From positions 57,957 through 121,956 of the IMG/VR virus record IMGVR_UViG_3300042448_000646: a stretch of DNA of 64,000 nt; one strand, 5' to 3'. The translations under genes and the position numbers were made by a program. Shown here in pieces: positions 34,684 through 54,128 of this stretch. The stretch's first letter is position 1; each line of letters opens with the position of its first letter. The notes beneath the pieces are model-generated. The model saw nothing but the letters and a program-made list of their open reading frames with translations, made no database searches and was not told where the DNA came from. The stretch is from a virus.

Positions 34684-34687
34684 GGCT

Positions 34688-36351: not shown

Positions 36352-36377
36352 CGTAGATAATTGAGAGTAATCTGTGT

Positions 36378-36689: not shown

Positions 36690-36699
36690 ATTATTTTAG

Positions 36700-37794: not shown

Positions 37795-37863
37795 AGGTGT
37801 GTTTTTAGTTTTTTAGGTTTATAATGTTGCAAGTTAATATGTTCTATTATATAATGCAAATAG

Positions 37864-38372: not shown

Positions 38373-38394
38373 TGCTCACCTCCTTCATATAATT

Positions 38395-39282: not shown

Positions 39283-39536
39283 AGTTTTTCTATTTCTTGT
39301 TTTACTTCGTTCCAATATGGGTATAGTACTTGACTATCATAATCATAAATTCCTACAACAATATTTAATATCTCATCAACTGCAATTAATGCACATTGCT
39401 TGGCGTTCCATACTCTCATTCTTTCCGAATAAATAAAACCATCTTCGGTTGTTGCTTCATTTGATGAAAATGAGAGAAATGATTCTACCAACTCTTCGGC
39501 TTTCTCCACTGCCGTTTGTTGTTTATTGTTTGTCAT
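39279..39536 (-). CDS. Small hypothetical protein (AKQCALIAVDEI type)
   Basis: Start 39536 MTNNKQQTAVEK; ends EVKQEIEKL. Confidence 0.6.
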   Translation of the reverse strand: MTNNKQQTAVEKAEELVESFLSFSSNEATTEDGFIYSERMRVWNAKQCALIAVDEILNIVVGIYDYDSQVLYPYWNEVKQEIEKL

Positions 39537-39796
39537 TTCCCTGCCTTGTGTATTGGGTTTTTGCAGTTTCCTTTGTGACATAGAATATTACCCTTGTAAT
39601 TCTTACAAATGAAGTATTCACATTCTTCAATCACACACACCTTAAGTGGGTCTGATGCTAAATTACCTTCACTGGGTATTGTGTAGTTGGTAGTTTTTGA
39701 TGATACTGTTGGTTCCGTGCAACCACTTATCATTCCGATAAGTAATGTTGCTAATAATAGTTTTTTCATTGCAGTTTGTTGTTTATTGTTTGTCAT
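39533..39796 (-). CDS. Putative lipoprotein
   Basis: MKKLLLATLLIGMISG-C lipobox (start 39796 or 39769); HKGNCKNPIH. Confidence 0.6.
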   Translation of the reverse strand: MTNNKQQTAMKKLLLATLLIGMISGCTEPTVSSKTTNYTIPSEGNLASDPLKVCVIEECEYFICKNYKGNILCHKGNCKNPIHKAGK

Positions 39797-39831
39797 TTCC
39801 GTAGGTTTTGTTGTAGTATTGTTCGGGTGAA

Positions 39832-40080
39832 TCATATTTTTTGTTTTTTAAATTGTTTAAACCATTCACTTGTTGTTGTCTTTTGATAATCACTTCCTAA
39901 AGTATAAATCATTCTTTGATGAAGTAGTTCTAAAACTTCTTCCTCACTATACATTCTTTCAGCTTGCCATTTAGCACCTTCTTTAAAAGAATGTCCACAT
40001 AAAATTCTATTATATTTATCCCTATTATTAATGTGATTTTTAGCAGCTTCTTCAAGTGTTTCTTGTTTATTGTTTGTCAT
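39832..40080 (-). CDS. Small hypothetical protein (ETLEEAA...GAKWQAERMYSEEEV type)
   Basis: 82-aa ORF. Confidence 0.6.
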   Translation of the reverse strand: MTNNKQETLEEAAKNHINNRDKYNRILCGHSFKEGAKWQAERMYSEEEVLELLHQRMIYTLGSDYQKTTTSEWFKQFKKQKI

Positions 40081-40289
40081 AGTTTTTCAATTTCTTCTTT
40101 TACTTTTAACAAAAACTCGTATATCTCCCCATCAGGAATAAACCAAGCAACTTTTAACATTTCAGCAACGCAAATTAAAGCACATTGAATCCCTTCATTC
40201 CGTTGTTGTAATCCAACCACGGTGAATTTATCAACCAGTTCTTTGGCTTTGTCTTTTGGTGTCATCGTTTGTTGTTTATTGTTTGTCAT
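40077..40289 (-). CDS. Small hypothetical protein, paralog of 39279-39536
   Basis: KAKELV...QCALICV...KVKEEIEKL. Confidence 0.6.
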   Translation of the reverse strand: MTNNKQQTMTPKDKAKELVDKFTVVGLQQRNEGIQCALICVAEMLKVAWFIPDGEIYEFLLKVKEEIEKL

Positions 40290-40747
40290 TGCTTAGACAT
40301 TGCATTAATAGCGTTGGTAGAACCAGACATTGTAAACTTGTAGACTTCTGTTGTGCAGTAGGTTTCATTTACTCTTACTATGGCAGAAGAACATCTCTTA
40401 AAGTCAGTGAGGAAGTCATCGTTAAGTATTGAGGTAATGTCATCTAGGATAAACACAGTGTTGTTGTCGGCAGATTTAGTACAGGTAAAGGTGTACCGCA
40501 TAGACTCTCCGTTTACTATCAAGGCTATGTCTGTTTGTAAAGACTCGTCACAGAAGTAACTTCCTGTTAAGTAGAAGTAAAGCTGATCTCCTACTTTTTC
40601 TAGTTTAAGTAATGCCTTCTTGTCAGAGGTCATGCAGTAAGCAATCTTGTAAGGATTGTCTAGTTTGTTGTCGACAGTTTTAACTATCCACTGTCCGTAA
40701 CTTAAGTTAGAGACAAATAATAAGGCGATGATTAGTAATTTTTTCAT
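40286..40747 (-). CDS. Secreted/periplasmic hypothetical protein
   Basis: MKKLLIIALLFVSNLSYG-QW signal peptide; start 40747 preferred. Confidence 0.6.
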   Translation of the reverse strand: MKKLLIIALLFVSNLSYGQWIVKTVDNKLDNPYKIAYCMTSDKKALLKLEKVGDQLYFYLTGSYFCDESLQTDIALIVNGESMRYTFTCTKSADNNTVFILDDITSILNDDFLTDFKRCSSAIVRVNETYCTTEVYKFTMSGSTNAINAMSKQ

Positions 40748-40766
40748 AAGTGTTTTTTGTTTGTTG

Positions 40767-40907
40767 TTAGGGGGATTCATTGATTAAAATCATACTATCG
40801 TAATAAATTATACTGTCAGTAACTACTAAGCTATGCTTTGTTTCGTTTTGGGAACACCCCATACCTAACAGTACTGATATGAGGATTAATGTTTTTAGAT
40901 TCTTCAT
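40767..40907 (-). CDS. 46-aa putative lipoprotein (not in ORF track)
   Basis: MKNLKTLILISVLLGMG-CSQNETK... Confidence 0.5.
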   Translation of the reverse strand: MKNLKTLILISVLLGMGCSQNETKHSLVVTDSIIYYDSMILINESP

Positions 40908-40989
40908 TTTTAAAGTTTTCCTTGTTTTAGTTTTAGTTCATCTATATTCCATAGGAACTGTAGTCTTTTCCAGATTCTACTTTGAAGAG

Positions 40990-42117
40990 TTACGCTCTTC
41001 TGAATTCGTTGTTTTCGTACTTCCACTTTATCCATTTGATTTTGATTAAATCAAAGTCTTCTAATGACTTTGCTACCCATGACTCATCTATAGTGTCTTT
41101 AAAACACAGTATATGCACATTAGCGACCTCATCTTTGTTTAGACGTAGTGCACGTCCAATCTTCTGAGAAGCTTTCTTCTCGTTGCTGTAAGAATGCATA
41201 ATGATAATATGTTTTAGATTGGGTACAGTTACTCCTTCACTTAACTGTTCTACGGCACTTAACCTAGTAATGGCCCCACTAGCAAATCTGTCGAGATTTT
41301 CCGCATTCTCTACTTTATGATTTTTAGAGTGATGCGAATACTTACATATAGAATCTGCTTGTTCAGTAGTATTAGCAAACAACAAACATTTGTCAGTTTC
41401 AGGAACACGGTCTAATACAAACTGTAGAAAGTAAAGCTTTGATTTAAACTGTTTTAGTGCGTTTAGTAGAAAGATGCGTTTCATAAACAAATCTTTACCA
41501 CCAGCAGATGTACTAATCTGAGATTGTAGCCAGTTATAGTTCTTTACCTCACTTGTGTAGAAAGATTTATTTCCTTTACCTACCTCAATGTTGTTAGTTG
41601 TACCTAAAGGTATCTGATGTACGTAGATTCTATAATCATTTAAAATCTCTTCGTCAACAGCCTCATCTACAGTATAACTGTACTTAATTGGGTAGTATTG
41701 CTCCATCATATGTCCTTTTTCGCCATATGTATACTTAGGAGGTGTACCTGTTAACCCTAAAACTCTTCCTTTGAACTCAGATAGAAAGACATCGTGAGAA
41801 TACTTTGTGTTATGAGCTTCATCTAAGATTACAATGTCATAGTCTTCTGGGTTATGTTTTACTAGTGAGATATAACTTGTGAAAGTTATATTTTCTAATA
41901 GATGTTGCATATTGAATTTTTCAGCATCATTCTTCCAAGACTCAAAAATTGTAATTTTAGGGGCTGCAACCAGTACTTTGCCCCCAAGCTTGTTGATGTA
42001 CTGCAAGCCGATGTAAGTTTTACCTACTCCCATACTTACATGCAGTCCTGCTCGGCCAAAAGACAGAACTGCACTAAGAGCTTCTTGTTGTATCTTTTCT
42101 CTAACTATGTTACTCAT
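40990..42117 (-). CDS. Superfamily 2 helicase (DEAH)
   Basis: GVGKT, ILDEAH, GLTGT, LSEGVTVP, QKIGRALR. Confidence 0.88.
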   Translation of the reverse strand: MSNIVREKIQQEALSAVLSFGRAGLHVSMGVGKTYIGLQYINKLGGKVLVAAPKITIFESWKNDAEKFNMQHLLENITFTSYISLVKHNPEDYDIVILDEAHNTKYSHDVFLSEFKGRVLGLTGTPPKYTYGEKGHMMEQYYPIKYSYTVDEAVDEEILNDYRIYVHQIPLGTTNNIEVGKGNKSFYTSEVKNYNWLQSQISTSAGGKDLFMKRIFLLNALKQFKSKLYFLQFVLDRVPETDKCLLFANTTEQADSICKYSHHSKNHKVENAENLDRFASGAITRLSAVEQLSEGVTVPNLKHIIIMHSYSNEKKASQKIGRALRLNKDEVANVHILCFKDTIDESWVAKSLEDFDLIKIKWIKWKYENNEFRRA

Positions 42118-42620
42118 TCTAATCCTTTTATTGTACTAAGGTAGTTACCTGCCTCAGCGTATCTTCCATCTATATTACGAAGATAACGATTTTGAATATG
42201 AATATAACATTTGATGTTATCTTTATATGATTTATAACTTGCGTGGTTATTTAACTCGCCTAAAACATATTTACATTTATGGTATTTAATACCAAAGAGA
42301 TTTTTGTTAGATACGCACACCCTAGAAACATAGTTTCCTGTCTCAATACGTGCTTGTGCTACAGCCATAGGAGGTAACACACAGTCTTGGTTTACCAGTT
42401 CTTTAAGGATAGCACTATCTGTAAGAGCAACATCACCAATAGTTATAGTATCTCGTGTGTGGATGTGTATTCTTCTGATGATAGGATCTTTAGCCAGTAA
42501 TACTATTAGAGTTCCGATAAGCAATAAATTTAATAACAGAGATGCTTTTGTTATTCTTCCTAAGTTAGGTATTTTCTTTAACTTAAGGTCTTGAGTAAGT
42601 TTATAATATGTGTTTTTCAT
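42114..42620 (-). CDS. Membrane-anchored GH73-like glucosaminidase/muramidase
   Basis: TM segment then AVAQARIETG...NKNLFGIK...YAEAGNY. Confidence 0.75.
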   Translation of the reverse strand: MKNTYYKLTQDLKLKKIPNLGRITKASLLLNLLLIGTLIVLLAKDPIIRRIHIHTRDTITIGDVALTDSAILKELVNQDCVLPPMAVAQARIETGNYVSRVCVSNKNLFGIKYHKCKYVLGELNNHASYKSYKDNIKCYIHIQNRYLRNIDGRYAEAGNYLSTIKGLE

Positions 42621-42660
42621 AACTTTTTATATTACTAATTTAGTTAATTGTTTCGATAAG

Positions 42661-42691
42661 ACAAAAAAATCCCCTACAATTAAGTAGGGGA
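42661..42691 (-). terminator. Intrinsic terminator
   Basis: TCCCCTAC-TTAATT-GTAGGGGA-TTTTTTT on the - strand. Confidence 0.75.
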
Positions 42692-42699
42692 CATCCTGG

Positions 42700-43080
42700 C
42701 TAATCAATCCATCCAATTGTTGGAACTACTTGTTTTACTAACTGGAGTTGTTCAATAAAGTTACAAGGAGTGTACTTTGGATACCCAAATCCATCGTTAC
42801 CTGTTTCTTTAAACTCAGTAGGAACTGCAGTTTTTATTTGGAAAGCGATTTCTTGTTCTACTGCTGCTCTGTAACTAAGGTTACTTCTAGCTTCTCTCAT
42901 GTCTGTTAATATGTTATCAACAGTAAGATTTCTGAACATGTCTCGCACTTCCAAAGTGTGAATGAATTGCATTTTGTCTAAAGCATTCTTAACAGAACGT
43001 GCTTTAACTCTGAAGAAGCGGCTAGTATCTACTCTTTCGTAGGACTTGCCATCAATGGTTTTGTTTTTTCTGATTCTCAT
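42700..43080 (-). CDS. Hypothetical protein
   Basis: Start at 43080 (MRIRKNK), 15 nt after the predicted +1 at 43095. Confidence 0.6.
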   Translation of the reverse strand: MRIRKNKTIDGKSYERVDTSRFFRVKARSVKNALDKMQFIHTLEVRDMFRNLTVDNILTDMREARSNLSYRAAVEQEIAFQIKTAVPTEFKETGNDGFGYPKYTPCNFIEQLQLVKQVVPTIGWID

Positions 43081-43131
43081 AGTGTTTAAATTAGTAGAAG
43101 GAGAAAGAAAAAATCCGACCAAAGGGAGGAT

Positions 43132-43172
43132 AAATAAAAAGGAAATAGCCAGTCGATTAAAACTGGCTATTC
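43132..43172 (-). terminator. Intrinsic terminator closing the RNA cluster
   Basis: ATAGCCAGT / ACTGGCTAT stem followed by TTCCTTTTTATTT. Confidence 0.7.
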
Positions 43173-43194
43173 TTTAGGATACATGGCACTAATA

Positions 43195-43495
43195 AGATAA
43201 TAAATTCGAAAATTTATTAAACCTTACCCACTAGCATCATAGAGAGGAACCGATTTGCTTTACACTATGGAACCAAATCTTAAGCCAGTACTCCCTCCAC
43301 TAATAGGCCGTTACAAAGTAACATTTGTCTGCCATTACAGTAACACAGTTGTGTCACTTTGCCGAGCTGTACCTGTAGCTCAACAGAACCAAGTTCTTTT
43401 TAATGTTTTACCCCTATGAACCAGGAAGTTTAGGACATTATCTACAAGAGGTAGATACTCAACAGATATTTCAGCACTGTAATGCTAGGTAATCT
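43195..43495 (-). ncRNA. Candidate large structured RNA
   Basis: No tracked ORF; many hairpins plus long-range pairs CTAGCAT/ATGCTAG and CATTACAGT/ACTGTAATG. Confidence 0.45.
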
Positions 43496-43507
43496 GATAA
43501 ACCTTTG

Positions 43508-43630
43508 AGAAAGAGATAGGACTTGCACCTATAAGATGTCATTTAGGAAGGTATCACTCCTGACACCAGTAATGAATATCAATAAATAGTTATACCTTTT
43601 ACTGCGGCTTCTGCTTTCGCCACTCTTTCT
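43508..43630 (-). ncRNA. tRNA-like RNA with expanded anticodon loop and long variable arm
   Basis: Acceptor AGAAAGAG/CTCTTTCT; TGGCGAAA...CGC D-arm; T-arm ATAGG-TGCAAGT-CCTAT; no assignable anticodon. Confidence 0.6.
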
Positions 43631-43633
43631 TTG

Positions 43634-43718
43634 TAGCCCATAGCGGAATCGAACCGACTATTTACAAGATGAAATCTTGGTGTCCTGTATCCGTTAGGAA
43701 CCGTTAGACGAATGGGCC
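43634..43718 (-). tRNA. Atypical tRNA-Glu(TTC) with 12-nt D-loop insertion
   Basis: GGCCCAT/ATGGGCT acceptor; CAAG-ATTTCAT-CTTG anticodon arm; GGTTCGATTCC T-loop; no encoded CCA. Confidence 0.7.
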
Positions 43719-43724
43719 ATTTTT

Positions 43725-43890
43725 ACTTCCATCTGCACTCAGTTATGATTTCACTCCTCGGTCCATCATCACAACTGCTCACCCTTTGGAAGTGAGTTAT
43801 GGTGCATTAAAGTAACACAAGCCGTTGATATCCCTTTAGGGTCACAACATACTATTCTTGTGTTGGAACTGATAGTGCAGTTTACTTTAA
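43725..43890 (-). ncRNA. Candidate structured RNA: two three-way junctions, the 3' one with a pseudoknot
   Basis: TGCAC/GTGCA, CTCAC/GTGAG, CAGTTGTGAT/ATCATAACTG; loop TTCCA pairs with downstream TGGAA. Confidence 0.55.
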
Positions 43891-44461
43891 CTCCAGCTAT
43901 GAGAACGTTACCCTAACAAGTTTTAACTTATCAGGAAAACGAAATTAAAGTCATAAGGGAAAGAAAAAAAGAAGGGCAGTATAGTAGAGACTTAGTTAGC
44001 GTTAAGTAAGTTCTTTTGAAAAAATGGAATATCCGCACACCCTTACTACTAAAAAACCCTAACACATAATAAACCTATAGAGAGTTATAATAAGAAGAGG
44101 TTACCAGTAGGCTTACCCTTAAGCTTATATCTTAAGTTACCATTATCTATATTAAGTCGGTTTAATCTAATCTTAACCTAAAGTGATTTAGTGTTAAGAG
44201 CAGAAACCATAGGGGGGAGTGTCCCCATCTCTCTAATGCATTGACTATTAATCACTTATGAGAATCAATTCTTTGATTTTTCTGTAGATATTTGTACGAA
44301 TACTGCAGTGATAGACTGTAATTATGAGTTAAAATGATGGCTATAGTGTCTACTTCACTATACACGACTGACTCTAATTAAGACTGAAGATGGTAGAGTA
44401 GTTGGTTCTTTTTCTCTTTTCTCTTTACTGCTTGTCTGGGTCTCTCTCTATAGGGGAAAAC

Positions 44462-44482
44462 AAAAGCACCCCGAAGGGTGCT
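44462..44482 (-). terminator. Intrinsic terminator (cUUCGg loop)
   Basis: AGCACCC-TTCG-GGGTGCT-TTT. Confidence 0.8.
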
Positions 44483-44494
44483 ATTGCTTAACTG

Positions 44495-45076
44495 TTAGAA
44501 GGGAACATCGTCCACATTCGCAGTTTCGTCTACGGGTACGTTCTCTGTAAGTGCAGAGAGGTCCGCTGTAGTACGCTGAGCGACAACCATTGTTTTGTCG
44601 GCATACGCATCAGTGTCAGGGCGCAAGAAGCATTTGCGGTACACGAAGTTGCCGTTTGCATCTGTCACACGAGATTTCGTTTCTCTGTCCAACTTGTAGG
44701 CAGATTCACGAATAATGTAGTTGCCGTTGGCATCTTTCTCGTTGATAATCTTGGCGTTAACGGCTTCGTTAAAGTCAGATGTTTCAATGATTTGGATACG
44801 CACAGCACGACCAAACACGCTCTCAAGGTTGATTGGCTTAAGGCCGTTCTCTTGGAACTTGAAAGGTTCGCCTGAAGAAGTGTGAGCAACGTCTTCGGCT
44901 TTAATACCGAAAGTTTTCTCAAAGACCTCCATAGCGAAAGTGTGAATGGCGGTACGCAATAAACGAGATTGCAAACCGAGTGAGAAGGCGGAGAGTGAGT
45001 CGGATTCTACTCCACATAGAACGCTAACGGAACCTTTTCCGTTAACCCAAGCCGAATAAGCGTTAACTGTGCTCAT
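44495..45076 (-). CDS. Early protein with SSB-like acidic C-terminal tail (possible ssDNA-binding protein)
   Basis: 193 aa ending ETANVDDVPF; own motif with predicted +1 at 45092. Confidence 0.6.
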   Translation of the reverse strand: MSTVNAYSAWVNGKGSVSVLCGVESDSLSAFSLGLQSRLLRTAIHTFAMEVFEKTFGIKAEDVAHTSSGEPFKFQENGLKPINLESVFGRAVRIQIIETSDFNEAVNAKIINEKDANGNYIIRESAYKLDRETKSRVTDANGNFVYRKCFLRPDTDAYADKTMVVAQRTTADLSALTENVPVDETANVDDVPF

Positions 45077-45162
45077 ACTGATGTATATTGGCAGTAAAGG
45101 AAAGAAAAAACCCCCGTAGGGGGGATAGACCGTTAAGGCATTAGACGGTTAAACGCAAATAA

Positions 45163-45285
45163 CCGAGCGAAGCGAGGGTAGTAGACGGTTTGTTTAACTT
45201 TTGTTTGTCTTAGCACGGGGAATTTTTTGACTAACCCTGTTTTGTCTAACTTCTTGTGTAACTTTTGACTGTATAAGTTAGACAA
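45163..45285. repeat. Iteron-like TTGTNTAACTT repeats plus CGAGCGAAGCGAG motif
   Basis: Direct copies 45190-45200, 45242-45252, 45254-45264; inverted copy 45275-45285. Confidence 0.55.
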
Positions 45286-45448
45286 GATAGACTAGAGGTA
45301 GAGGCAATTACCCGCATAAGATGACAGCGTAGCCCCAACCAAGGTGGGAAGTAAGGTAAGAGGAAAGAAAAACCATTGCCCAATCGAATTTACTGGGTAA
45401 GATGGTTGCGTAGCCATTTAATCCAATGGCACTAGAGTACCAAAGGAG

Positions 45449-45739
45449 TTAGTCAAACTCCCTTGGATACACTATGAGACCTTTTGGGGTTAGTTCTACG
45501 AGATCTTCTACAAAACCATCTACTAGAGTTTCCACTAATGTGTACTTCTCGTATACTAGCACTACTATAACACCATGGTGAGTTTTAGTAGCAGTATAGT
45601 GTAGGGGTTTCATATTCTTGACCACGTTACTTACAAAGGTTGAGTCATCTGAAGTCATCTGCAATGAATCAGGAAGTTGTGTTTGTCCGCAAGCCGTACA
45701 GGCCACAGACAAAAATAGGGTTACGAATAATGTTCTCAT
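45449..45739 (-). CDS. Putative lipoprotein/secreted protein, predicted leaderless
   Basis: MRTLFVTLFLSVACTA-CG; ATG coincides with the predicted +1. Confidence 0.65.
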   Translation of the reverse strand: MRTLFVTLFLSVACTACGQTQLPDSLQMTSDDSTFVSNVVKNMKPLHYTATKTHHGVIVVLVYEKYTLVETLVDGFVEDLVELTPKGLIVYPREFD

Positions 45740-45774
45740 ACGATAGAAAAGAAAAACCCCCGAAGGGGTTCTAG

Positions 45775-46119
45775 TTAGTTCTTGCGAGGTCTACCACGTT
45801 TAACTTTGTTATTGTCCGCTAGTTCCTCTTTGATGTCTACAGGCTCTGCGAAGTCCCAAGGCTTACCGAAGTACTCGAAGTACGTCCTTTCCATTTCTCG
45901 TAAAGTAGAGCCTATGGTTTCTTGGTACTTAAAGTTTTGTGTCAACGTGTATTCGTCTTCTACTTGTCCAAGCATTTTAGAGAGGGTTCTCTGTTTAGTT
46001 TGTTGGTAGAAGTCGTACTGACGTTGGATGGTACGTTGCATTTCTTTTTCAAGGTTTTCTGCACATTTGCGAAGCATGTCGTTAATCAACGATTTAGCCT
46101 CAATAGAGTTGGCTTTCAT
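45775..46119 (-). CDS. Helical protein with C-terminal AT-hook
   Basis: Ends KVKRGRPRKN. Confidence 0.65.
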   Translation of the reverse strand: MKANSIEAKSLINDMLRKCAENLEKEMQRTIQRQYDFYQQTKQRTLSKMLGQVEDEYTLTQNFKYQETIGSTLREMERTYFEYFGKPWDFAEPVDIKEELADNNKVKRGRPRKN

Positions 46120-46164
46120 AGCAGTAGAGAAAAGAAAAAACCCTACGTATGTAGGGCTTCTTCA

Positions 46165-46506
46165 TCATACGCAATCGTCGCAGTCGTCTTCGTCTACGTT
46201 CTTCCGTAGGTTAATCTTTCCTACAACTTTTGGGTACTCTTGTTCCTGTATATCAGGACCAAACAAGTCTTCTTTGCATACGTTGTAGTACTCTAGCGCA
46301 AAGCCAATGTTCTCCATGTCGCCATCAATTTCCTTAGCCGTTGCCCCGTACGCGTACGAATTCCTAGCAATTTAAGCCGTTGAACAGATTACATTAAGGA
46401 TAGCCTCAATCTCACTAGTACCATTCTCTGACACCTGCATACCTAGTACGCGACGTAGAAGGGCTGTGTACTTGCCCTTTTCGATTTGAATTAAATTGTT
46501 ATTCAT
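46165..46506 (-). pseudogene. 113-codon frame interrupted by one in-frame TAA (46374-46372); pseudogene, recoded gene or two tiny genes
   Basis: MNNNLIQIEKGKYTALLRRVLGMQVSENGTSEIEAILNVICSTA*IARNSYAYGATAKEIDGDMENIGFALEYYNVCKEDLF...DDCDDCV. Confidence 0.55.
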
Positions 46507-46526
46507 AGCAATAGGGAAAAGAAAAA

Positions 46527-46640
46527 AACTACCTCATTTCGAGGTAGTTGTAGGTTGCTAACCCTGTGGTGGTCTTACGTGAACAAGCATACGTTCACCG
46601 CACTTTGGCTTAGGTATATGCGTAAGGGATATCTCCTTAC
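46527..46640 (-). ncRNA. Candidate small RNA unit
   Basis: Own motif (+1 at 46640) and terminator; no credible ORF; hairpins GTAAGG/CCTTAC, GTGAAC/GTTCAC, GGTT/AACC. Confidence 0.5.
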
Positions 46641-46664
46641 AATAGAGAAAAGAAAAAAGGGACG

Positions 46665-46826
46665 TTAGTCCCCTTCAAACGTACGGTTCTCTAATCCGTT
46701 GAGATCACTTTCGTTCTTCTCATCTTCATAGCATTGTTGGCACATGTGTAAATCATCACACTGGCAGGTTAGTTGTGGAGAGATGCTATACATAGCAATC
46801 ATATCCGATGCTTCTTCAAAAGTCAT
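46665..46826 (-). CDS. 53-aa acidic Cys-rich protein, predicted leaderless (not in ORF track)
   Basis: MTFEEASDMIAMYSISPQLTCQCDDLHMCQQCYEDEKNESDLNGLENRTFEGD; stop lies in the next hairpin loop. Confidence 0.65.
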   Translation of the reverse strand: MTFEEASDMIAMYSISPQLTCQCDDLHMCQQCYEDEKNESDLNGLENRTFEGD

Positions 46827-46918
46827 GTAATAAGAAAGAAAAACTACTACTCATAATTAAGGGACAAGATCCATAATTATTTCCGTAAGATCATTGCGTA
46901 CTCCACTACAGAGTGAGA

Positions 46919-47065
46919 CTATAAGTCCCACTCTTGTGCAGCGTAATAAGCAGCGAAAGGTCTGCTTACACCTTGACGACGAAAGAATCTGTAAGTGTCT
47001 ACAAACTCTTGTACTAATCCATAGGACTTCGCTATGTAGTAGTGTTCAGGAAATTGATCTATCAT
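46919..47065 (-). CDS. 48-aa protein, predicted leaderless (not in ORF track)
   Basis: MIDQFPEHYYIAKSYGLVQEFVDTYRFFRRQGVSRPFAAYYAAQEWDL. Confidence 0.65.
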   Translation of the reverse strand: MIDQFPEHYYIAKSYGLVQEFVDTYRFFRRQGVSRPFAAYYAAQEWDL

Positions 47066-47097
47066 GCAAGAGAAAAGAAAAAAGACTCCGAAGAGTC

Positions 47098-47217
47098 TTA
47101 AAATTTACTAAACTCGTTGTGCCAGTATCTTTTGTTTGCTTTGCTACAACTGTGACCACGACCTGATGCGCAGGACATCAGTCCTACAATCACCAATACT
47201 ATTATTAGATATCTCAT
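47098..47217 (-). CDS. 39-aa lipoprotein, predicted leaderless (not in ORF track)
   Basis: MRYLIIVLVIVGLMS-CASGRGHSCSKANKRYWHNEFSKF. Confidence 0.7.
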   Translation of the reverse strand: MRYLIIVLVIVGLMSCASGRGHSCSKANKRYWHNEFSKF

Positions 47218-47229
47218 GAAATAGAAAAG

Positions 47230-47358
47230 AAAAAAAGAAACGCATAGGTTTTCTGTGACACACTGATGTATTCCCTTAAGGGCGAATCTGTGACACTATG
47301 CGTATTCAGGTATTGTGGATGAACCACTGCACACACTCTTTGGTGATACCTTATCTGT
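47230..47358 (-). ncRNA. Candidate small RNA unit
   Basis: Own motif (+1 at 47358), no start codon at the expected position; stems AGGTAT/ATACCT and ACGCATAG/CTATGCGT. Confidence 0.5.
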
Positions 47359-47394
47359 AAAACAGAAAAGAAAAAAAGCCCCGAAGGGCTCTCT

Positions 47395-47643
47395 TTACAA
47401 CTGATTAATCTTTCGCTCATCCTTCTGAGAAAGGTAAATGATGCTACCAATTAGAGTTACTAAGACCATTAAAGCAAACATGTTACCAAGCATAGACTGA
47501 AAGCAGGCAACAAATGTATTGTGTCCCATCAAAGCACCAATGCTAGCAAGCAAAGAAGTAACGATGATAGAAGAGACAACGGCAAAGGCGAACGGAAGCA
47601 CTACTACCAGTAATGCGTTTCCTATGTATTTGTATGTATTCAT
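47395..47643 (-). CDS. Small two-TM membrane protein
   Basis: 82 aa, two hydrophobic segments. Confidence 0.65.
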   Translation of the reverse strand: MNTYKYIGNALLVVVLPFAFAVVSSIIVTSLLASIGALMGHNTFVACFQSMLGNMFALMVLVTLIGSIIYLSQKDERKINQL

Positions 47644-47670
47644 AGCATAAGCGGCAAGAAAAAAAGGTCG

Positions 47671-47883
47671 TTAGACCTTTCTTTCACTAAACACTAATGC
47701 TACTACAAATGCTGGCATCCATCCTAAGGCAAAGCAATACTTCACTATCTCAGTAAACTGCTCACCATACTCCTTTATCATTCCTGATTGGAAGTACACA
47801 GTCATAAAGCCTCCTGCCACAATGAATGCAACCATACTGACTACCGCAGTGGTAATCAATACATTATCTAATGTCTTTCTCAT
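47671..47883 (-). CDS. Small two-TM membrane protein
   Basis: 70 aa; stop lies in the hairpin loop. Confidence 0.65.
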   Translation of the reverse strand: MRKTLDNVLITTAVVSMVAFIVAGGFMTVYFQSGMIKEYGEQFTEIVKYCFALGWMPAFVVALVFSERKV

Positions 47884-47907
47884 ACAATAAAGAAAAGAAA
47901 AAAAGGG

Positions 47908-48141
47908 CTATTGCCCTTTCTTTTCTAACTCATACAACCAAGACTCCTTCAACATATCCATTGACTTATGTATGTCTCTCTCTATTTTACAGACAAACAA
48001 TAACATAGCCAATGACAGAGTCAAAGGAAAACAAGTTATAAAGAATGTGTCATAATCATTGTTAACGACACATACAACCGAACACACAACTAGTGCAAAG
48101 GTTATCAACCCATACACTATACTCATTTTATAGTTTCTCAT
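47908..48141 (-). CDS. Small two-TM membrane protein
   Basis: 77 aa; stop lies in the hairpin. Confidence 0.65.
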   Translation of the reverse strand: MRNYKMSIVYGLITFALVVCSVVCVVNNDYDTFFITCFPLTLSLAMLLFVCKIERDIHKSMDMLKESWLYELEKKGQ

Positions 48142-48186
48142 AGCACCACAGGAAAGAAAAACCTACCCCGAAGGGTAGGTCTTCTA

Positions 48187-48501
48187 CTAGAACGGCAACT
48201 CATCCCACTCTTCCTCTCTCACCTCGAATGGACTTGCTGCTTCTACTACCATTGGCTCGTCCTTCACCCAACCATACTCACCCCAAGTGTAGTAGAAACT
48301 ACTGTAATCCATAGCATACTCAGGCATGTACTGGTTCTCGTCTGGATAGTACACAGGAAACTCTCTCATCATTCCCAGACGAACGATGCCTCCGTGTCCT
48401 TCCACTTGGACTTCGATTCCATCCACACCAACACACATCTCGTTCCACTCAGCTGCCATGGCTTCCGCCACAGCAACTAACTTATTTAATCTATCTATCA
48501 T
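48187..48501 (-). CDS. Acidic first gene of the array, with SSB-like tail
   Basis: 104 aa ending EEEWDELPF. Confidence 0.65.
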   Translation of the reverse strand: MIDRLNKLVAVAEAMAAEWNEMCVGVDGIEVQVEGHGGIVRLGMMREFPVYYPDENQYMPEYAMDYSSFYYTWGEYGWVKDEPMVVEAASPFEVREEEWDELPF

Positions 48502-48535
48502 AGCACAATAAGCAAGAATAACCTTCTGCTTATTG

Positions 48536-48660
48536 GCGGGGGTACCCCGACTCCCCTTCTTGAGGTGGGGGGTATCAATTATACATCCCCCACCCTCCTA
48601 TAGATATGGAAAATTTTGGGGGGGTTATAAAAATTGGGGGGGTTAAATTTTGGAAAGAAA
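48536..48660. other. G/C-run and A/T-tract strand-switch region; candidate genome terminus or packaging site
   Basis: GGGGGTACCCC, G6, two AAAATT(TT)G7 units between divergent gene blocks. Confidence 0.45.
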
Positions 48661-48688
48661 TTTTCTGGAAGAAATATATCTTTGTGTT

Positions 48689-49201
48689 ATGTATATAGGT
48701 AATGAAGTAGAGGAGAGAGCTACACTTAGGGTTTTGGTTAACTTAAAGGAGCTTATGAGTAGGGAGTGGGGTAATTGGAAAACTGACGATGTGTTAGTAG
48801 TATGTGTTAGTCCTGACTATAGTGGGGCTATAGGGATGCGGGTGTTACATGGGTTAACTAGAGATAGAGTTTTCCCTTATTATGATAGTGCTGATGTTTC
48901 TTTTCCTGATAGTAGTGAGGAGTTTATCGAGGAATGTAAGTTAGAGTTTAGAGTACTTCTAGGTATGTGGAGAACTCAGGTAAGTAAGATTGTTTTAGTT
49001 GAAGCAGGTATACTTACTGGGGGTAACTATACTTGGATGAGTAGGATGATAGAGGAGTTTGGGTTTGAGAAGCCTATTACTGTGGCACTAGTAGAGAGAG
49101 TACAGTCTAAGTTTAAGTGTGATGTAGTAGGAATGTATTGTAAGCAGATGCCTACTTTCTGGTGGGAAGAGGATAATAAGCATTGGGACGGAATCTTGTA
49201 G
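48689..49201 (+). CDS. Type I phosphoribosyltransferase-like protein
   Basis: KIVLVEAGILTGGNY PRPP-loop-like motif, terminal FWWE; ATG 48689 lies 4 nt after TATCTTTG (48677-48684). Confidence 0.6.
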   Translation: MYIGNEVEERATLRVLVNLKELMSREWGNWKTDDVLVVCVSPDYSGAIGMRVLHGLTRDRVFPYYDSADVSFPDSSEEFIEECKLEFRVLLGMWRTQVSKIVLVEAGILTGGNYTWMSRMIEEFGFEKPITVALVERVQSKFKCDVVGMYCKQMPTFWWEEDNKHWDGIL

Positions 49202-49499
49202 TATAGATTAAGTTTTCAACTGTCTATTATATTAGAATTTTATCATCGTAAAGTTTCGATAGAGGTAGAAAGAATCTTGTTCTATCGTAAAAAGGCGTGT
49301 CCCTTCGGGGTTCTCTCTTTAAGTAGATGTGAATAACTTCTTCTTTCCTTTCTCTTGGTTTTTCATCTATCTTTGGGGGACTACAGGGGGTTAATGTAAC
49401 AGTATAAATAAAGTTTAGTTATTCTCTTGGGCTCTACTAGATTACCAAGTTCCTTATTAAGGATAACTCCGTCCTAACGGAATTAGGCTTTTAAACTAG

Positions 49500-49529
49500 T
49501 TGATTTTAATTCTAGTTGTTATATATTTG
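49500..49529 (+). promoter_or_regulatory. Bacteroidota sigma70-type promoter
   Basis: TTG(49500)-N19-TATATTTG(49522-49529). Confidence 0.65.
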
Positions 49530-49542
49530 TGTATTATAAATT

Positions 49543-49896
49543 ATGCCAAATAATCCACTACTTCTTGCAGATATACAGACCTATTATCAATGGTCTGCGC
49601 AAAACGGTATCAATCCGCCTCAGTTACCTGCAGGGTATGTATTGGCTACCGATGCTACTGCTACTGGTATATTGGCTTTAAGATTATTTGATGCGGCTTA
49701 CATCACTACAGGTATTATAAACCCTAACAGATTAGGTACAGGATATACTGGGGCAGGTAATCTTTACCTAGCTGACGATGGAACCTGGAAAGCTATTGCA
49801 GTTGGAGGCGGAGGAACAACATCTAACGTATTAATAGACGGAGGCACATTTACTGCCCCAAATAATGCATTAATAGACGCAGGAGGGTTCATATAA
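49543..49896 (+). CDS. Putative virion/tail protein
   Basis: Gly-rich, YLADDGTW and IDGG motifs typical of fibre-associated proteins. Confidence 0.55.
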   Translation: MPNNPLLLADIQTYYQWSAQNGINPPQLPAGYVLATDATATGILALRLFDAAYITTGIINPNRLGTGYTGAGNLYLADDGTWKAIAVGGGGTTSNVLIDGGTFTAPNNALIDAGGFI

Positions 49897-50438
49897 TGGC
49901 TATAAAAATTAGAAGAGGTACGAATGCACAAAGAGTTCCAGTTGTTTTTGAACTGGCTGAAATTGCATTCACTACTGATACAAAAAAGTTTTACATTGGA
50001 GATGGAATTACTGCTGGTGGTATATTAATTGACGATCAGTCATTAACTTACAACTCAGCAACCAATACAATAACCACAGCAGATGGGCACACGGTTGTTA
50101 TTAGCAATATTCCCACAGTTGGTGATATTGCAAACTGGAACGATGCGTATGACAATACAATTATATCGGCCTCAATTACGGGCGATGTAACAAAGACATT
50201 AAATTTAAATCAAAGAGATGGGGGTGCTGTACTTGTATCGTATACCGATACTTACGTATTCACACAAGGTTCTCCTTCAGCATCTTGGGTAATCACACAT
50301 AGTATGAACAAGTACCCTTCTGTAACGGTTATTGATTCTAGTAACAGTACAGTTGAGGGGGAAATTATTTACAACTCATTGAGCAGTCTGACAATTAATT
50401 TCTCAGGCGGTTTTTCAGGAAAAGCATATCTTAACTAA
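49896..50438 (+). CDS. Tail protein with Mtd/hyaluronidase-like N-terminal domain
   Basis: MAIKIRRGT...EIAFTTDTKKFYIGDG; C-terminal WVITHSMNKYPSVTV. Confidence 0.6.
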   Translation: MAIKIRRGTNAQRVPVVFELAEIAFTTDTKKFYIGDGITAGGILIDDQSLTYNSATNTITTADGHTVVISNIPTVGDIANWNDAYDNTIISASITGDVTKTLNLNQRDGGAVLVSYTDTYVFTQGSPSASWVITHSMNKYPSVTVIDSSNSTVEGEIIYNSLSSLTINFSGGFSGKAYLN

Positions 50439-50449
50439 TAACAATAATA

Positions 50450-51883
50450 ATGGCAAAAAAATTCTTAGTCTCGATTGACCTCAATCAAAACGAGCTCCAA
50501 AATGCAAGGATACAAAACCTTGCTACTGCTCCTGGAACCCCAGGACAGGGTCAAGTTTACTTTAACTCTACAGTTGGAGATAAATCTATTTACTTCTATG
50601 ACGGAACATCATGGGTAGACGTAGGAGGTGATATAAGGTCACTTGTAGCAGGTAATGCTATCTCCGTAACAGGAACTCGTGATATTACCGTAAACGTCCT
50701 CTACGACAACGTTTCTATTGGATTAAACGGATCTAATCAGCTTATTGTTAAAGCAGGTGGTGTAACTAACGCAATGTTGGTTAACTCTTCTGTTTCAGTA
50801 GTAGCTGGAGCAGGTCTTGCTAACGGAGGTTCTGTTGCTCTAGGAGCTTCTATTACTCTTGACGTTGGAGCAGGTACAGGTATTACTGTAAATGCCAATG
50901 ACGTAGCTTTGGACACAGCTTCTACCCGTAACACAGACCACGCTGGTGTAACTCTTACAGCAGGTGCAGGTTTGACAGGTGGAGGAGACATTACAGCTTC
51001 TCGTACTTTTAATGTAGGCGCAGGAACTGGTATCACAGTTAACGCTGATGATATTGCTATTACAGGAGCTGGTTCTTTAACTACCAACTATGTAACTAAG
51101 TGGAACGGAACAGGATTCTCTAACACAACTATTACAGATGACGGAACTACAGTAACTATCGGGGGCAACTTAACAGTTAACGGTACTACTACTTATGTTA
51201 ACTCAAACACAGTTGAGATTGGTGATAACATTCTTCTTCTTAACAGAGACGAAGTAGGTGCTCCTTCTCAGAACGCAGGTCTTGAAGTAGAACGTGGTAC
51301 AAGTGCTAACGTTTCTTTCATCTGGAATGAGACTAGTGACTACTGGTCTACTGTAACTGAGCCTTTGCACGTAGGTTCTATTGCTGACGCTACTTCTGGT
51401 TACACAGGTAACAAATACTTGGTAGGTGACTCAGGAGTAATTAAGTATTTGACTGCTGCTGATTTAGCTACTGATGTTATTGCAGGTGTTACAATCACAG
51501 GCTCTAATGGAATTGCAGTTGCTGGTTCAGGAACAACTTCTATTACTGTAAGTGGTGTAAACGCTACTACAAGTGCTGCAGGTGTTGTAGAATTGGCTAC
51601 TAGTGCTGAAGTAAATGCTTTAAGTAGCTCTACAGTAGCAGTAACTCCTTCTGGTTTAGCTGCTTTGCGTTATGCTGCAACAGGTCCAGCAGCTCCAGCT
51701 ACTAGTATGATAGTAACTCACGGTTTAGCTTCTAACGATATCATAGTTCAAGTTTATGAACTAGCTACTGGTGAGAACGTAGAGTGTGATGTAGTACGTA
51801 CAACCAATAACGTAGTTACCTTGGGCTTCGCTATTCCACAAGCAATCAATACTTTGAGAGTATTGGTAGTGAAGATTGCTTAA
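50450..51883 (+). CDS. Tail fibre-like protein with AGxGL/AGTGIT repeats
   Basis: Tandem AGAGL..GG...VGAGTGITVNA repeats; AGLEVERG. Confidence 0.7.
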   Translation: MAKKFLVSIDLNQNELQNARIQNLATAPGTPGQGQVYFNSTVGDKSIYFYDGTSWVDVGGDIRSLVAGNAISVTGTRDITVNVLYDNVSIGLNGSNQLIVKAGGVTNAMLVNSSVSVVAGAGLANGGSVALGASITLDVGAGTGITVNANDVALDTASTRNTDHAGVTLTAGAGLTGGGDITASRTFNVGAGTGITVNADDIAITGAGSLTTNYVTKWNGTGFSNTTITDDGTTVTIGGNLTVNGTTTYVNSNTVEIGDNILLLNRDEVGAPSQNAGLEVERGTSANVSFIWNETSDYWSTVTEPLHVGSIADATSGYTGNKYLVGDSGVIKYLTAADLATDVIAGVTITGSNGIAVAGSGTTSITVSGVNATTSAAGVVELATSAEVNALSSSTVAVTPSGLAALRYAATGPAAPATSMIVTHGLASNDIIVQVYELATGENVECDVVRTTNNVVTLGFAIPQAINTLRVLVVKIA

Positions 51884-51934
51884 TTTTTATTAACCCCTTA
51901 TATTTGCTAGGGGCCTAAAAACCTCTAGCTTTTT
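51876..51934 (+). promoter_or_regulatory. Host-type promoter motif abutting a terminator-like hairpin
   Basis: TTG-N20-TATATTTG(51899-51906) then GCTAGGGG-CCTAAAAA-CCTCTAGC-TTTTTT. Confidence 0.45.
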
Positions 51935-51952
51935 TACATTACAAACAAGAAC

Positions 51953-54085
51953 ATGAAGTCACTCAGCAGTAAAACCTATCAAGGTGGTGTAAGTATACAA
52001 GGGTTAACCACTCTTTCAGGAACTGTTTATTTAACAGGAATAACTAACACAGCTAGCTGGGACCATGTTATTGTAGGAACAACTGCACAAGGTCAGATCT
52101 ACACTAGGACTTACGCTCAGTTCATGGGTGATGTAGCTACGGGAATAAGTTTAAGTAGTTATGTAACAGGTTCAGGAACAACTAATTATCTTCCTAAGTT
52201 TACAGGAGCTAGTGCTTTAGGTAACTCTCAGATTTTTGACAATGGAACCAATGTTGGTATAGGAACTTCTAATCCTGCAAAAAAATTACATGTAGTTGGA
52301 GATGCTTGGATTAACAGACCAACAAATAAAGTTGATAATAATGGTGCTACTGAATTTGGTTCAAGAGTAGAATTCAATAATGCTTTTACAGCAGGATCTA
52401 CTGGATATACAGTATTTAACTATCCTTCAGCTGCTGTATTTAGAATATATGCTGATTATGACGGTAATGTGGGTGGGGTTCAACCAGACCTTCAGTTGGG
52501 GTTAGGATACTTAACAGTTAAAAATAGTGGAGGTACTATAGGAAATATAGGAATTGGTACTACTACTCCTGCTTATAAACTACAAGTAGGAGGTGGGGAT
52601 ATTGCAATTGATTATAATAGATATTTAAGAGGTGGAAGCGGAGGCGATTGGAACTTAGTCAATTTATATAATGGGGGCACAGGTGATATAGAAATCACCA
52701 TGCTTAATGTTGGTTGGTATCTTCGTCACAATGCTAATGCAACATTTGCAGGGAACATAGGAATAGGTACTACAAATCCTTCAACAAAGTTACATGTAGT
52801 AGGTGCTTCTATAATTGCTAATAACAGTTCTATAAATCCAGATACTTATGGAAGTACAGTTATTGCTGGTGCTATAGGAACTGTTGGTGGATGGGGATTA
52901 AGTTCAGCAATTGGCGGAAATGCAGGTACTGGACACAGTTGGGCTATTGGAACTAATGGTGATAATCTATATATGGGTTATTCCAATGGTAGTTCTAGTA
53001 ACTCCATGTTGACATTTTTACAAGTAGATGATAGTACTCGTAATGTATTTTTAGTACCCTCAGCAGGTAATGTAGGGATAGGTACTGCTTCTCCTAGTTA
53101 TAAATTAGATGTAAATGGTTCATTTAATGCAGTAACATCTGGAGTATATCTAACATACAGCAGCGGTATTCTTTATCATGGTAACTACTATCAATTTACA
53201 AGCGGTAATAACTACCTACTTTTTGCTAGAGACAGCGGAGATTTAATTTTAGGTAGTAATGATACTGAACGTCTACGCATTACATCTGCAGGAAACGTAG
53301 GTATTGGTACTGCTAGTCCAAACACAAAACTTCATGTATCTGCAGGTAATTTTTTAATTAGTGGAACAGCGATAGGTGGTGGAGCAGATGCAAATAGTGG
53401 GTTAAGAATTGTAGCTCCTATTTCTACTACTCACTATAATTGGATGTTAGGGGCTCAACAAAACATTAATAGTGCTTTTGAAATTACCCCATCAACAACT
53501 GTTGGGGGAACTACATTTTCAACCCCAACCGCTGTATTTTTACAAAATGGTAATGTGGGTATAGGAACCACTAGCCCTGCTACTAAACTAGATGTAAGTG
53601 GAGTAATAACTGCTACAGGCGGAAACAGTACTAACTGGAATACTGCGTATGGCTGGGGTAATCATGCTTCAGCAAGTTATGTTCCTCAAGCAAGAACGCT
53701 TACTATTAATGGAACTAGTTATGACTTAAGCGCAAATAGAACTTGGACTATACCTACTAGTGCTAACATACAAGAGGCAGCTAATAACGGAAAAGTTACA
53801 ACTGCCGCTTCAGTAGGAACTACAGTAATAACCACAGTCGCTACAGCGACTTATGATGGGGCTACATTCAACTATGTATTAAAGGATGGAACAAACTATA
53901 GGGCAGGAACTATTATTGCCGTATGGAGCGCAGGAGCAGTTCAATTTAATGAAACAACTACAAATGATATAGGCAGTACTGTAGGAGTAACTTTTGCAGT
54001 TGCTTTAAATGCAGGTAATGCAGAACTAAGGGCAACTTCAGCTACTCCTGGTTGGACAGTAAAAGTAGTAACGATAGGAATTTAA
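51953..54085 (+). CDS. Tail fibre protein with GNVGIGT repeats
   Basis: Six xN(V/I)GIGTxxP modules; NWNTAYGWGNHAS motif. Confidence 0.75.
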   Translation: MKSLSSKTYQGGVSIQGLTTLSGTVYLTGITNTASWDHVIVGTTAQGQIYTRTYAQFMGDVATGISLSSYVTGSGTTNYLPKFTGASALGNSQIFDNGTNVGIGTSNPAKKLHVVGDAWINRPTNKVDNNGATEFGSRVEFNNAFTAGSTGYTVFNYPSAAVFRIYADYDGNVGGVQPDLQLGLGYLTVKNSGGTIGNIGIGTTTPAYKLQVGGGDIAIDYNRYLRGGSGGDWNLVNLYNGGTGDIEITMLNVGWYLRHNANATFAGNIGIGTTNPSTKLHVVGASIIANNSSINPDTYGSTVIAGAIGTVGGWGLSSAIGGNAGTGHSWAIGTNGDNLYMGYSNGSSSNSMLTFLQVDDSTRNVFLVPSAGNVGIGTASPSYKLDVNGSFNAVTSGVYLTYSSGILYHGNYYQFTSGNNYLLFARDSGDLILGSNDTERLRITSAGNVGIGTASPNTKLHVSAGNFLISGTAIGGGADANSGLRIVAPISTTHYNWMLGAQQNINSAFEITPSTTVGGTTFSTPTAVFLQNGNVGIGTTSPATKLDVSGVITATGGNSTNWNTAYGWGNHASASYVPQARTLTINGTSYDLSANRTWTIPTSANIQEAANNGKVTTAASVGTTVITTVATATYDGATFNYVLKDGTNYRAGTIIAVWSAGAVQFNETTTNDIGSTVGVTFAVALNAGNAELRATSATPGWTVKVVTIGI

Positions 54086-54128
54086 ATATTACAAATTAAA
54101 CATTGTTGGATAGTGAAAACAATATAAA

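Follow-up and report, generated by a model that had tools for sequence, protein, structure and literature searches.

How is a row of small genes transcribed when most of the junctions between its units carry a GC-rich hairpin that runs straight into a conserved pyrimidine-rich sequence? The question is raised by a 64,000-nucleotide (nt) stretch of DNA from an uncultured freshwater phage (the window; bases 57957-121956 of the 121,956-bp virus record IMGVR_UViG_3300042448_000646, which CheckV rates as complete). Most of the record is filled by plus-strand genes. A single minus-strand block, at window positions ~18138-48501, holds the replication genes (DNA polymerase, helicases and a primase/helicase-like protein), and the head of this block is an array of short units that share a 19-nt motif. 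With moderate confidence we read this motif as part of a compact composite terminator/promoter that would give rise to leaderless transcripts or transcripts with a 3-nt leader, probably made by an injected RNA polymerase (RNAP).

A 19-nt motif of fixed geometry on one strand

The full motif, TTTTTCTTTYCYNTNNYRY, is longer than first described, a pyrimidine-rich sequence of 19 nt that ends at a fixed purine. Positions are counted from the C of TTWTTC, with the predicted start at the purine at +12. All 19 copies listed in a preliminary description of this DNA were found on the minus strand with their C where it had been placed, and all are confined to the minus-strand block, in the array or among the replication genes. 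When they are aligned on the C, T occupies -5, -4, -2, -1, +1 and +2 in 19/19 copies, a pyrimidine (Y) stands at +4 and +5 in all 19 and at +6 in 18, and T is invariant at +8 (19/19), a feature absent from the earlier description. Y is found at +11 in 18 copies and at +13 in 17, and a purine (R) at +12 in 18, the exception being 45367; Y and R occur together at +11/+12 in 17 of the 19. Both the purine with its single exception and the preceding pyrimidine had been noted in these numbers, and the alignment confirms them.

As a control we used the other 223 TTWTTC sites on both strands of the genome, which have T at +8 in 80/223, Y at +11 in 117/223 and R at +12 in 99/223 cases (Fisher p versus the motif copies 1e-8 for T+8 and 1e-5 for R+12). 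The combination of T8, Y11 and R12 is present in 17/19 copies and in 13/223 control sites (Fisher p = 3e-16); the motif with its purine is thus not equally common at random T-rich sites. The sequence TTTTTCTTTYC occurs 14 times on the minus strand of the genome and never on the plus strand, and an 18-nt pattern 16 times and never, with 0/0 matches for the reversed-pattern control in both cases. Across five records, namely our own and one for each of the four related lineages described below (L009, L010, L011 and L015), 56 matches on the array strand stand against none on the opposite strand (reversed control 2). The strand bias, which had been named earlier as a check on the motif, therefore extends to the relatives.

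A weight-matrix scan trained on the 19 copies returned no further intergenic copy in the genome, and its extra matches (four on the minus strand, one on the plus strand) are all antisense within genes. One high-scoring match (weight-matrix score 21.9) lies at genome positions 57401-57411 on the minus strand, 550 nt before the window start, antisense within a 2311-aa plus-strand gene. No hairpin accompanies it, its +12 base is C, and chance is the probable explanation, although it could be an antisense start.

Hairpins and motif are separable

The 42 nt upstream of each copy were folded and scored as z against shuffles. A stem running into the T-run is present at 13/19 copies, with z <= -1.5 in 11 of these 13. 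This is the layout of an intrinsic terminator, a GC-rich stem-loop directly before a T-run, and termination is predicted there. The remaining six copies (48516, 47229, 46838, 43963, 43107 and 32563) have no such stem. The hairpins that had been described at nearly every unit are thus real, "nearly every" being generous; the absence of a hairpin at 32563 was confirmed by folding, and the cUUCGg loops exist, in four motif-linked hairpins. Terminator-like sites number 27 in 38000-50000 (6.7 +/- 2.6 in shuffles) and 18 in 18001-38000 (8.7 +/- 3.1 expected), compared with 12 versus 8.5 in 1-18000 and 8 versus 7.1 in 48600-64000.

Seven terminator-like hairpins in the window occur without the motif. 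Six are on the minus strand, at 44482-44465 (with a cUUCGg loop, after a 193-aa gene and followed by a T-run), 42692-42669 (T7, then GTCT), 43172-43143, 29459-29437, 19230-19206 and 18125-18105, and one is on the plus strand at 51906-51929; the first two serve as internal controls. The terminator 43172-43143 and the motif copy 43107 are set 36 nt apart. The first unit of the array has nothing upstream to terminate and carries the motif nonetheless: in four lineages (our own, L010, L011 and L015) this copy has a broken T-run and no abutting hairpin, and its orthologs in L010, L011 and L015 retain T+8, the Y-R pair and an ATG at +15. Because six of 19 copies are hairpin-free, copy 43107 is unfused and seven terminators do without the motif, and because T+8 and the +11/+12 pair lie past any U-tract, the motif is, judged by its sequence, more than the U-tract of a terminator. 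The earlier argument that a plain U-tract would not need such fixed features is borne out by T+8, Y-R at +11/+12, the hairpin-free copies and the motif-free terminators.

A second small motif, ACGC-N4-5-ATCTT(A/G), was seen at window positions 46899, 45411 and 45330 (minus strand) and at L010:7798, 9657 and 9746. Four of these six copies are located 36-56 nt upstream of the T-motif at junctions without a strong GC-rich hairpin, and the remaining two fall within the non-coding unit that follows 45367 and within the L010 ortholog of that unit. With n=6, a role as a stop or processing signal independent of hairpins is conceivable.

Start codons and shuffled units in related phages

Two protein queries led to eight IMG/VR loci of four lineages, one locus through the helicase and seven through the 193-aa array protein (profile-based). 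The helicase of L009 is 79% identical to our own, and the identity values for the other lineages are 90% (L010), 85% (L011) and 74% (L015); L012, L013, L014 and L016 are near-identical twins of L011. All four lineages carry the same array, with 16 (L009), 8 (L010), 12 (L011) and 4 (L015) pattern matches on the array strand, none on the opposite strand and 0-1 in the controls. A collection-wide IMG/VR scan for the motif with an ATG at +12 gave at least 118 stretches. Among the matches listed there is no further lineage, since the three loci with at least seven one-strand full-motif hits (L029, L105 and L135) are known relatives; also among these matches, a locus with three hits and five with two were rejected, being by eye T/C-rich coding antisense without hairpins.

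For our own record and L009, L010, L011 and L015 we tallied 65 copies with a looser pattern that imposes T at +8 (T+8 in 65/65 is therefore uninformative); own 19524, which lies inside an open reading frame (ORF), and copies with another base at +8, such as L010:9699, are left out. R stands at +12 in 63/65 copies, and 44/65 have a strong abutting hairpin. ATG-led ORFs of at least 25 aa begin at +12, exactly at the predicted start, in 22/65 and 3 nt after it, at +15, in 15/65 (14 with a GCT leader). The ATG is at +13 or +14 in 2/65 and at +22 to +37 in 12/65, and 14/65 copies have none within 45 nt. In the 26 copies without an ATG at +12 to +15 the purine is kept in 24 and the Y-R pair in 21, and the orthologs of the 43963 unit in L010 and L011 contain a tRNA-Glu(UUC) gene (ARAGORN). 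Since the purine is kept in copies that head non-coding or tRNA units, it does not behave as a translation signal, and since the motif heads such units the signal goes with transcription units rather than with translation. In Flavobacterium, adenines at -3, -6, -12 and -13 are reported in the available part of PMC6847099 to favour translation initiation; our motif has pyrimidines at these positions, which fits messages that start at or just before the AUG.

A unit-by-unit BLAST comparison revealed homology that spans motif to motif and then ends. Own 46838 matches L010:9146 (186 nt, 84%) beyond two shared units and thus at a different position, and own 46652 is common only to L011:8082, again at another position. 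Own 48156, own 47370, L010:7385, L010:8050 and L011:8640 are without counterpart. The hairpin moves with the upstream gene, as the one after a shuffled 53-aa gene is retained in L010 despite a different next unit; at orthologous junctions the hairpins differ in sequence and the pairing is maintained. By this comparison, the motif is where units have been acquired, lost or relocated among the relatives. A search for tyrosine recombinases (PF00589) found none in the 121,956-bp genome and was positive in 14/14 control genomes, so that the simplest route is homologous exchange at the repeats; integron-like attC cassettes are ruled out by the same lack of an IntI-type enzyme.

One motif-to-motif unit, window 46165-46506 (minus strand), contains ORFs of 44 and 50 aa, with a stop and ~50 nt between them. 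Its L010 ortholog has a single 114-aa ORF, and our copy may be a disrupted gene.

The candidate polymerase and host-type promoters

Which polymerase could read such a signal? The window encodes a 2521-aa protein at 1202-8767 on the plus strand, with DYDID at residue 1527. In tblastn its residues 917-1555 match g066 of Cellulophaga phage phi14:2, the catalytic RNA polymerase (E = 2e-11), and pairwise BLASTP with gp66 extends over ~985 residues (E = 5e-18) and places DYDID opposite the catalytic DFDID. The protein is hence a homologue of phi14:2 gp66 with an aligned DxDxD catalytic motif, in agreement with its earlier assignment as a virion RNA polymerase (vRNAP), and the phage is therefore a distant crAss-like phage. 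With the vRNAP as tblastn query, 126 crAss-like records were matched, every one at <60% identity; PHROGs and a PDB sequence search (phmmer) did not recognise it. By analogy with gp66-type enzymes the polymerase is probably carried in the virion and injected. In GenBank phages, megablast with the array found no match, hence no close relative there, and 10/10 small orphan ORFs of the window array were without a Pfam match.

Host-type signals offer little by comparison. Sigma-70-like sites are not enriched in 38000-50000 (37 vs 33.8 +/- 6.5 in shuffles). The Bacteroidota sigma-A promoter has a TAnnTTTG box at -12 to -5, according to the accessible part of PMC9723704; this box is not enriched in the genome (148 vs 141 +/- 11 in shuffles) and was not found in register with the motif, which reads CTTTYCYN from 0 to +7 and has no -35/-10 boxes. 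Host -7 or -33 boxes in register with the motif were likewise not found.

Upstream of the first unit lies a conserved head region (48535-48650, minus strand; L010:6090-6275, L011:6880-7035, L015:4560-4795), of which ~130-150 nt are conserved in four lineages. Its C-run/A-T-run repeats, two or three in number, and a G5...C5 hairpin surround a TAnnATTG box. The gene upstream of it differs, being a divergent 170-aa gene in our phage and L015 and a same-strand 204-aa gene in L010 and L011. The head region could be a polymerase entry site, an origin or a genome end.

Individual units, RNA contigs and non-coding elements

All copies described here are on the minus strand. At the head of the array, copy 48503-48521 (C 48516, +1 48504) reads TTATTC, is without an abutting hairpin and precedes a 104-aa gene whose ATG stands at +15 after a GCT leader. 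It is followed by 48143-48161 (C 48156, +1 48144; ATG at +15), which adjoins the hairpin 48184-48157 with a cUUCGg loop (z -2.61), by 47884-47902 (C 47897, +1 47885; hairpin 47923-47898; ATG at +14) and by 47645-47663 (C 47658, +1 47646; hairpin ~47682-47661; ATG at +15). Copy 47357-47375 (C 47370, +1 47358; hairpin 47396-47371) heads a ~140-nt unit without an ORF. The predicted start is the A of an ATG in three successive copies: 47216-47234 (C 47229, +1 47217), which has no strong hairpin and precedes a 39-aa ORF conserved in L010, L011 and L015, 47064-47082 (C 47077, +1 47065; hairpin 47099-47082) and 46825-46843 (C 46838, +1 46826; no abutting hairpin).

Copy 46639-46657 (C 46652, +1 46640; hairpin 46676-46655) heads a ~130-nt non-coding unit. 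An ATG at +15 is found again after 46508-46526 (C 46521, +1 46509; hairpin 46549-46527, z -4.0) and after 46121-46139 (C 46134, +1 46122; hairpin 46163-46134), whose 114-aa gene is present in all relatives; in 45738-45756 (C 45751, +1 45739; hairpin 45772-45753) the predicted start is once more the A of ATG. The sole copy with C at +12, 45354-45372 (C 45367), has a weak long-loop hairpin and heads a ~260-nt non-coding unit. Copy 45091-45109 (C 45104, +1 45092; hairpin 45124-45111) precedes the 193-aa gene with its ATG at +28. The hairpin-free copy 43950-43968 (C 43963, +1 43951) heads a non-coding unit with a conserved structured element, a tRNA-Glu-like gene and an abundant RNA, and the unfused copy 43094-43112 (C 43107, +1 43095; ATG at +27), with the terminator hairpin 43172-43143 36 nt upstream, opens a long replication operon. 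Within the replication module are 36310-36328 (C 36323; hairpin 36352-36326, z -4.14), 32550-32568 (C 32563), which is without a hairpin, as is its ortholog L009:10182, and stands before a 372-aa primase/helicase-like gene, and 26059-26077 (C 26072; hairpin 26101-26071).

RNA data consist of metatranscriptome contigs from two freshwater runs of two studies (X1 and X2), in which ends, starts and strand are not resolvable and DNA carry-over is possible. Each of the 11 contig pieces is contained in a single unit, and no motif is spanned by any of them: 42702-43070/43071, 43185-43507, 44518-45072 (several, with 44540-45072 and 44874-45072 under the 45104 copy), 45814-46039 and 46216-46447. The stretches 43602-44402 and 46539-48700 have no contig cover and are uninformative. 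The depth of 43185-43507 is 276 in X1 and 14.6 in X2, that of the next unit downstream 12.3 and 2, and this step lies across the terminator 43172-43143 and motif 43107; in both runs the contig ends at 43185, with no loose end. We take the contigs as a weak hint of separate units.

The piece 43185-43507 (minus strand) is non-coding, has no counterpart in L010, L011 or L015 and is by a wide margin the most abundant RNA of the region, the neighbouring genes having depths of 2-12. A further non-coding element of ~115 nt with a predicted three-helix fold was observed at 43767-43882 (minus strand), L010:11190-11370 and L015:8198-8314, and is absent from L011. It is 92-94% identical between lineages, compared with merely 72-82% for the adjoining genes, and a 65-nt insertion in L010 falls exactly in one hairpin loop. 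Rfam gave only a chance miRNA match (E = 0.57) in 42900-48700 and none for this element. The segment 43634-43718 (minus strand) is the counterpart of the tRNA-Glu(UUC) genes L010:11506-11580 and L011:11836-11910. ARAGORN found no tRNA in the window: our copy and that of L015 have a ~14-nt insertion in the D-loop region and are not called, and ours is without an encoded CCA. The segment represents a tRNA in decay or, alternatively, an RNA that resembles one.

Discussion

We propose that the array may be a run of self-contained transcription cassettes, with a compact composite signal at each junction. The variable GC-rich RNA hairpin would belong to the upstream unit and form its intrinsic terminator together with the T-run. 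The same T-run would be the upstream half of a phage-specific promoter or initiator, TTTTTCTTTYCYNTNNY followed directly by RY, with initiation at the purine 12 nt after the C. The resulting messages would be leaderless (the purine being the A of AUG), would carry a fixed GCU leader, or would be short non-coding RNAs and a tRNA. The reader would be the injected two-barrel RNA polymerase encoded at 1202-8767, and the shared signal may also act as the crossover point for the gain, loss and movement of cassettes among related phages. The preliminary description had suggested that each terminator T-tract doubles as the promoter of the next unit, and this is upheld in part, by the extension of the motif beyond the U-tract, the hairpin-free copies, the non-coding and tRNA units, the early-type strand and the gp66 homologue; what we infer from sequence is that transcription starts at +12, that each transcript is monocistronic and which polymerase is at work. 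Because the motif occupies a strand and block of early type and no host-type boxes accompany it, the injected polymerase appears to be the most likely reader. Taken alone, this link, drawn by analogy with phi14:2, is plausible and tentative.

Several points weigh against the composite terminator/promoter. The phi14:2 preprint, in the sections available, reports no common motif upstream of the gp66 transcripts, and gp66 in vitro used single-stranded or denatured DNA only (Drobysheva et al., 10.1101/2020.03.07.982082); in addition, we found no comparable motif array in the phi14:2 early region. Leaderless messages are described as rare in flavobacteria (5.5% in one species), and leaders of >10 nt as present on 87% of transcripts in another flavobacterium (accessible parts of PMC6847099 and PMC9723704); the host phylum of our phage is itself a prediction. 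The TAnnATTG box of the head region is a near match to the Bacteroidota -7 box, and entry of host RNAP into the array is therefore possible. At the two units with a long leader, a gap of 20-25 nt separates the contig ends (45072 and 43070/43071) from the predicted starts (45092 and 43095). Finally, part of the motif conservation is by descent, the relatives being close (74-90% identity in one protein).

Could the motif be a site of RNA processing instead? One or a few long early transcripts from the head region would then be cut at the motif by a host or phage endonuclease, leaving 3' ends shielded by the hairpins and new 5' ends near +12. The conserved head region with its near host-type -7 box upstream of the first unit would suit this, strand specificity is expected of an RNA signal, and the contigs do not separate primary from processed ends. 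Most polymerases should, however, be halted by the strong GC-rich hairpins and T-runs that follow nearly every unit, the hairpin-free copies of the replication module and the first-unit copy would have little to separate, and the depth differs 7- to 23-fold across one junction, though RNA stability could account for that; on balance we regard processing as unlikely. We give less credence to termination alone, in which the motif would be a preferred U-tract context, homogenised by gene conversion or recombination, and the array would be read through from the head region. That 13/19 copies adjoin a hairpin and that units recombine at the motif, a possible means of homogenisation, agrees with this, but 6/19 copies are hairpin-free, seven other terminator-like hairpins use other T-runs, T+8 and Y-R lie outside any U-tract with R+12 in 63/65 copies, and the first unit has the downstream half with a broken T-run.

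Equally doubtful is the reading in which the motif is a promoter for host RNAP, assisted by a phage-encoded or otherwise alternative sigma or by an activator, and not for the virion polymerase. The link between motif and vRNAP rests on analogy with phi14:2, where gp66 was inactive on double-stranded DNA in vitro and the early transcripts share no motif, as far as the available text goes (10.1101/2020.03.07.982082); against the host enzyme stand the missing -7 or -33 boxes in register and, by the same analogy and source, rifampicin resistance of the whole early strand. The idea that the motif provides a translation start context, a bS1-bound pyrimidine tract at a fixed distance from the ATG within a polycistronic RNA, is very improbable. 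It would account for the ATG at +12 or +15 in 37/65 copies, but not for the 26/65 without an ATG there, 24 of which keep the purine, or for the 14 copies that head ORF-less units, one with a tRNA gene; moreover, adenines and not pyrimidines favour initiation in Flavobacterium (PMC6847099, in the part available).

A stop-start relay is a variant that we consider rather improbable. A few injected polymerases would load once at 48535-48650, release the RNA at each hairpin/U-run and, still bound to the DNA, restart at the purine ~10 nt downstream, recognising the purine-rich template strand in single-stranded form. If true, it would correspond, in a DNA phage, to the gene-end/gene-start junctions of negative-strand RNA viruses, and it would explain gp66-type enzymes without classical double-stranded promoter activity.

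Comparison with known systems

In non-segmented negative-strand RNA viruses, whose polymerase is carried in the virion, a gene-end U-run stop stands directly before a conserved gene-start signal, and poxviruses use a T5NT early terminator. These signals involve RNA templates or factors of eukaryotic viruses, and the analogy is one of logic only.

The closest comparison for the polymerase is phi14:2, for which the preprint (10.1101/2020.03.07.982082, in the parts available) describes an early class that consists of the entire replicative module on one strand, is rifampicin-resistant and is assigned to gp66, middle and late classes on the opposite strand with host-like promoters, and two long early intergenic regions that yield very abundant non-coding RNAs. 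The two phages have homologous polymerases and a common genome plan, in which one strand bears the replication module together with small genes and long non-coding stretches, and our 43185-43507 resembles the abundant early RNAs of phi14:2. In contrast, phi14:2 packs its early genes tightly, and its early strand contains a single TTTTTCTTT in 47 kb. We also observed T-arm-like GGTTCGAATCC segments in its long non-coding early regions (L017, ~1790-1830 and 4480-4520), which parallel the tRNA-like element in the non-coding early unit of our phage.

With phage N4 the array has in common a virion-delivered polymerase with its own signals on the first genes and a hairpin just upstream of the start; the N4 early promoters P1-P3 are reported to have an obligatory hairpin centred at -11 in a conserved -17 to +1 block (PMC4496689, in the part available). 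Like the N4 vRNAP, gp66 prefers single-stranded templates in vitro, according to the portions of 10.1101/2020.03.07.982082 at hand. Here, however, the hairpins end ~15-20 nt before the predicted start, and the enzyme is of the gp66-type two-barrel kind, whereas the N4 vRNAP is T7-like. An N4-like DNA-hairpin promoter was rejected, the hairpins being variable, misplaced and dispensable (absent in 6/19).

The fused architecture had been thought undescribed, which does not hold: the class is published as PeSLs (promoter-early stem-loops), composite terminator/promoter motifs of T4-type phages that flank small, mostly orphan early genes and mediate modular shuffling (Arbiol et al. 2010, PMC2839356; Comeau et al. 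2014, PMC4122927; as far as available). In PeSLs the stem-loop serves the upstream unit and the promoter the downstream one, and the repeats are sites of insertion, deletion and swapping in a plastic region. Our array shares the stem-loop, the conserved adjacent motif and the small orphan ORFs, with the promoter role as a candidate, and shuffling at the repeats between related phages is seen in the motif-to-motif homology and in the moved or absent units. PeSLs, as described in these sources, are ~100 bp long and combine sigma-70 -35/-10 boxes for host RNAP with a Shine-Dalgarno sequence and start codon. By contrast, the conserved part here is 19 nt (~5x shorter) and has no host-type boxes or ribosome-binding site, the host sigma-70 consensus promoter that defines PeSLs not being found in the motif. 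The T-run is part of the signal, the ATG coincides with the predicted start or follows it by 3 nt, and an injected two-barrel RNAP is the likely reader. What is new is thus a far more compact, apparently leaderless version of PeSL logic, in an architecture class that is already known. Our literature searches found no paper defining a promoter for a crAss-type vRNAP, and the array supplies a candidate that is short, repeated and sharply delimited and for which a start base is predicted; its junctions would lend themselves well to in vitro transcription and structural studies. PeSL logic would thereby recur in an unrelated phage order, with regulatory repeats that double as recombination sites for orphan early genes.

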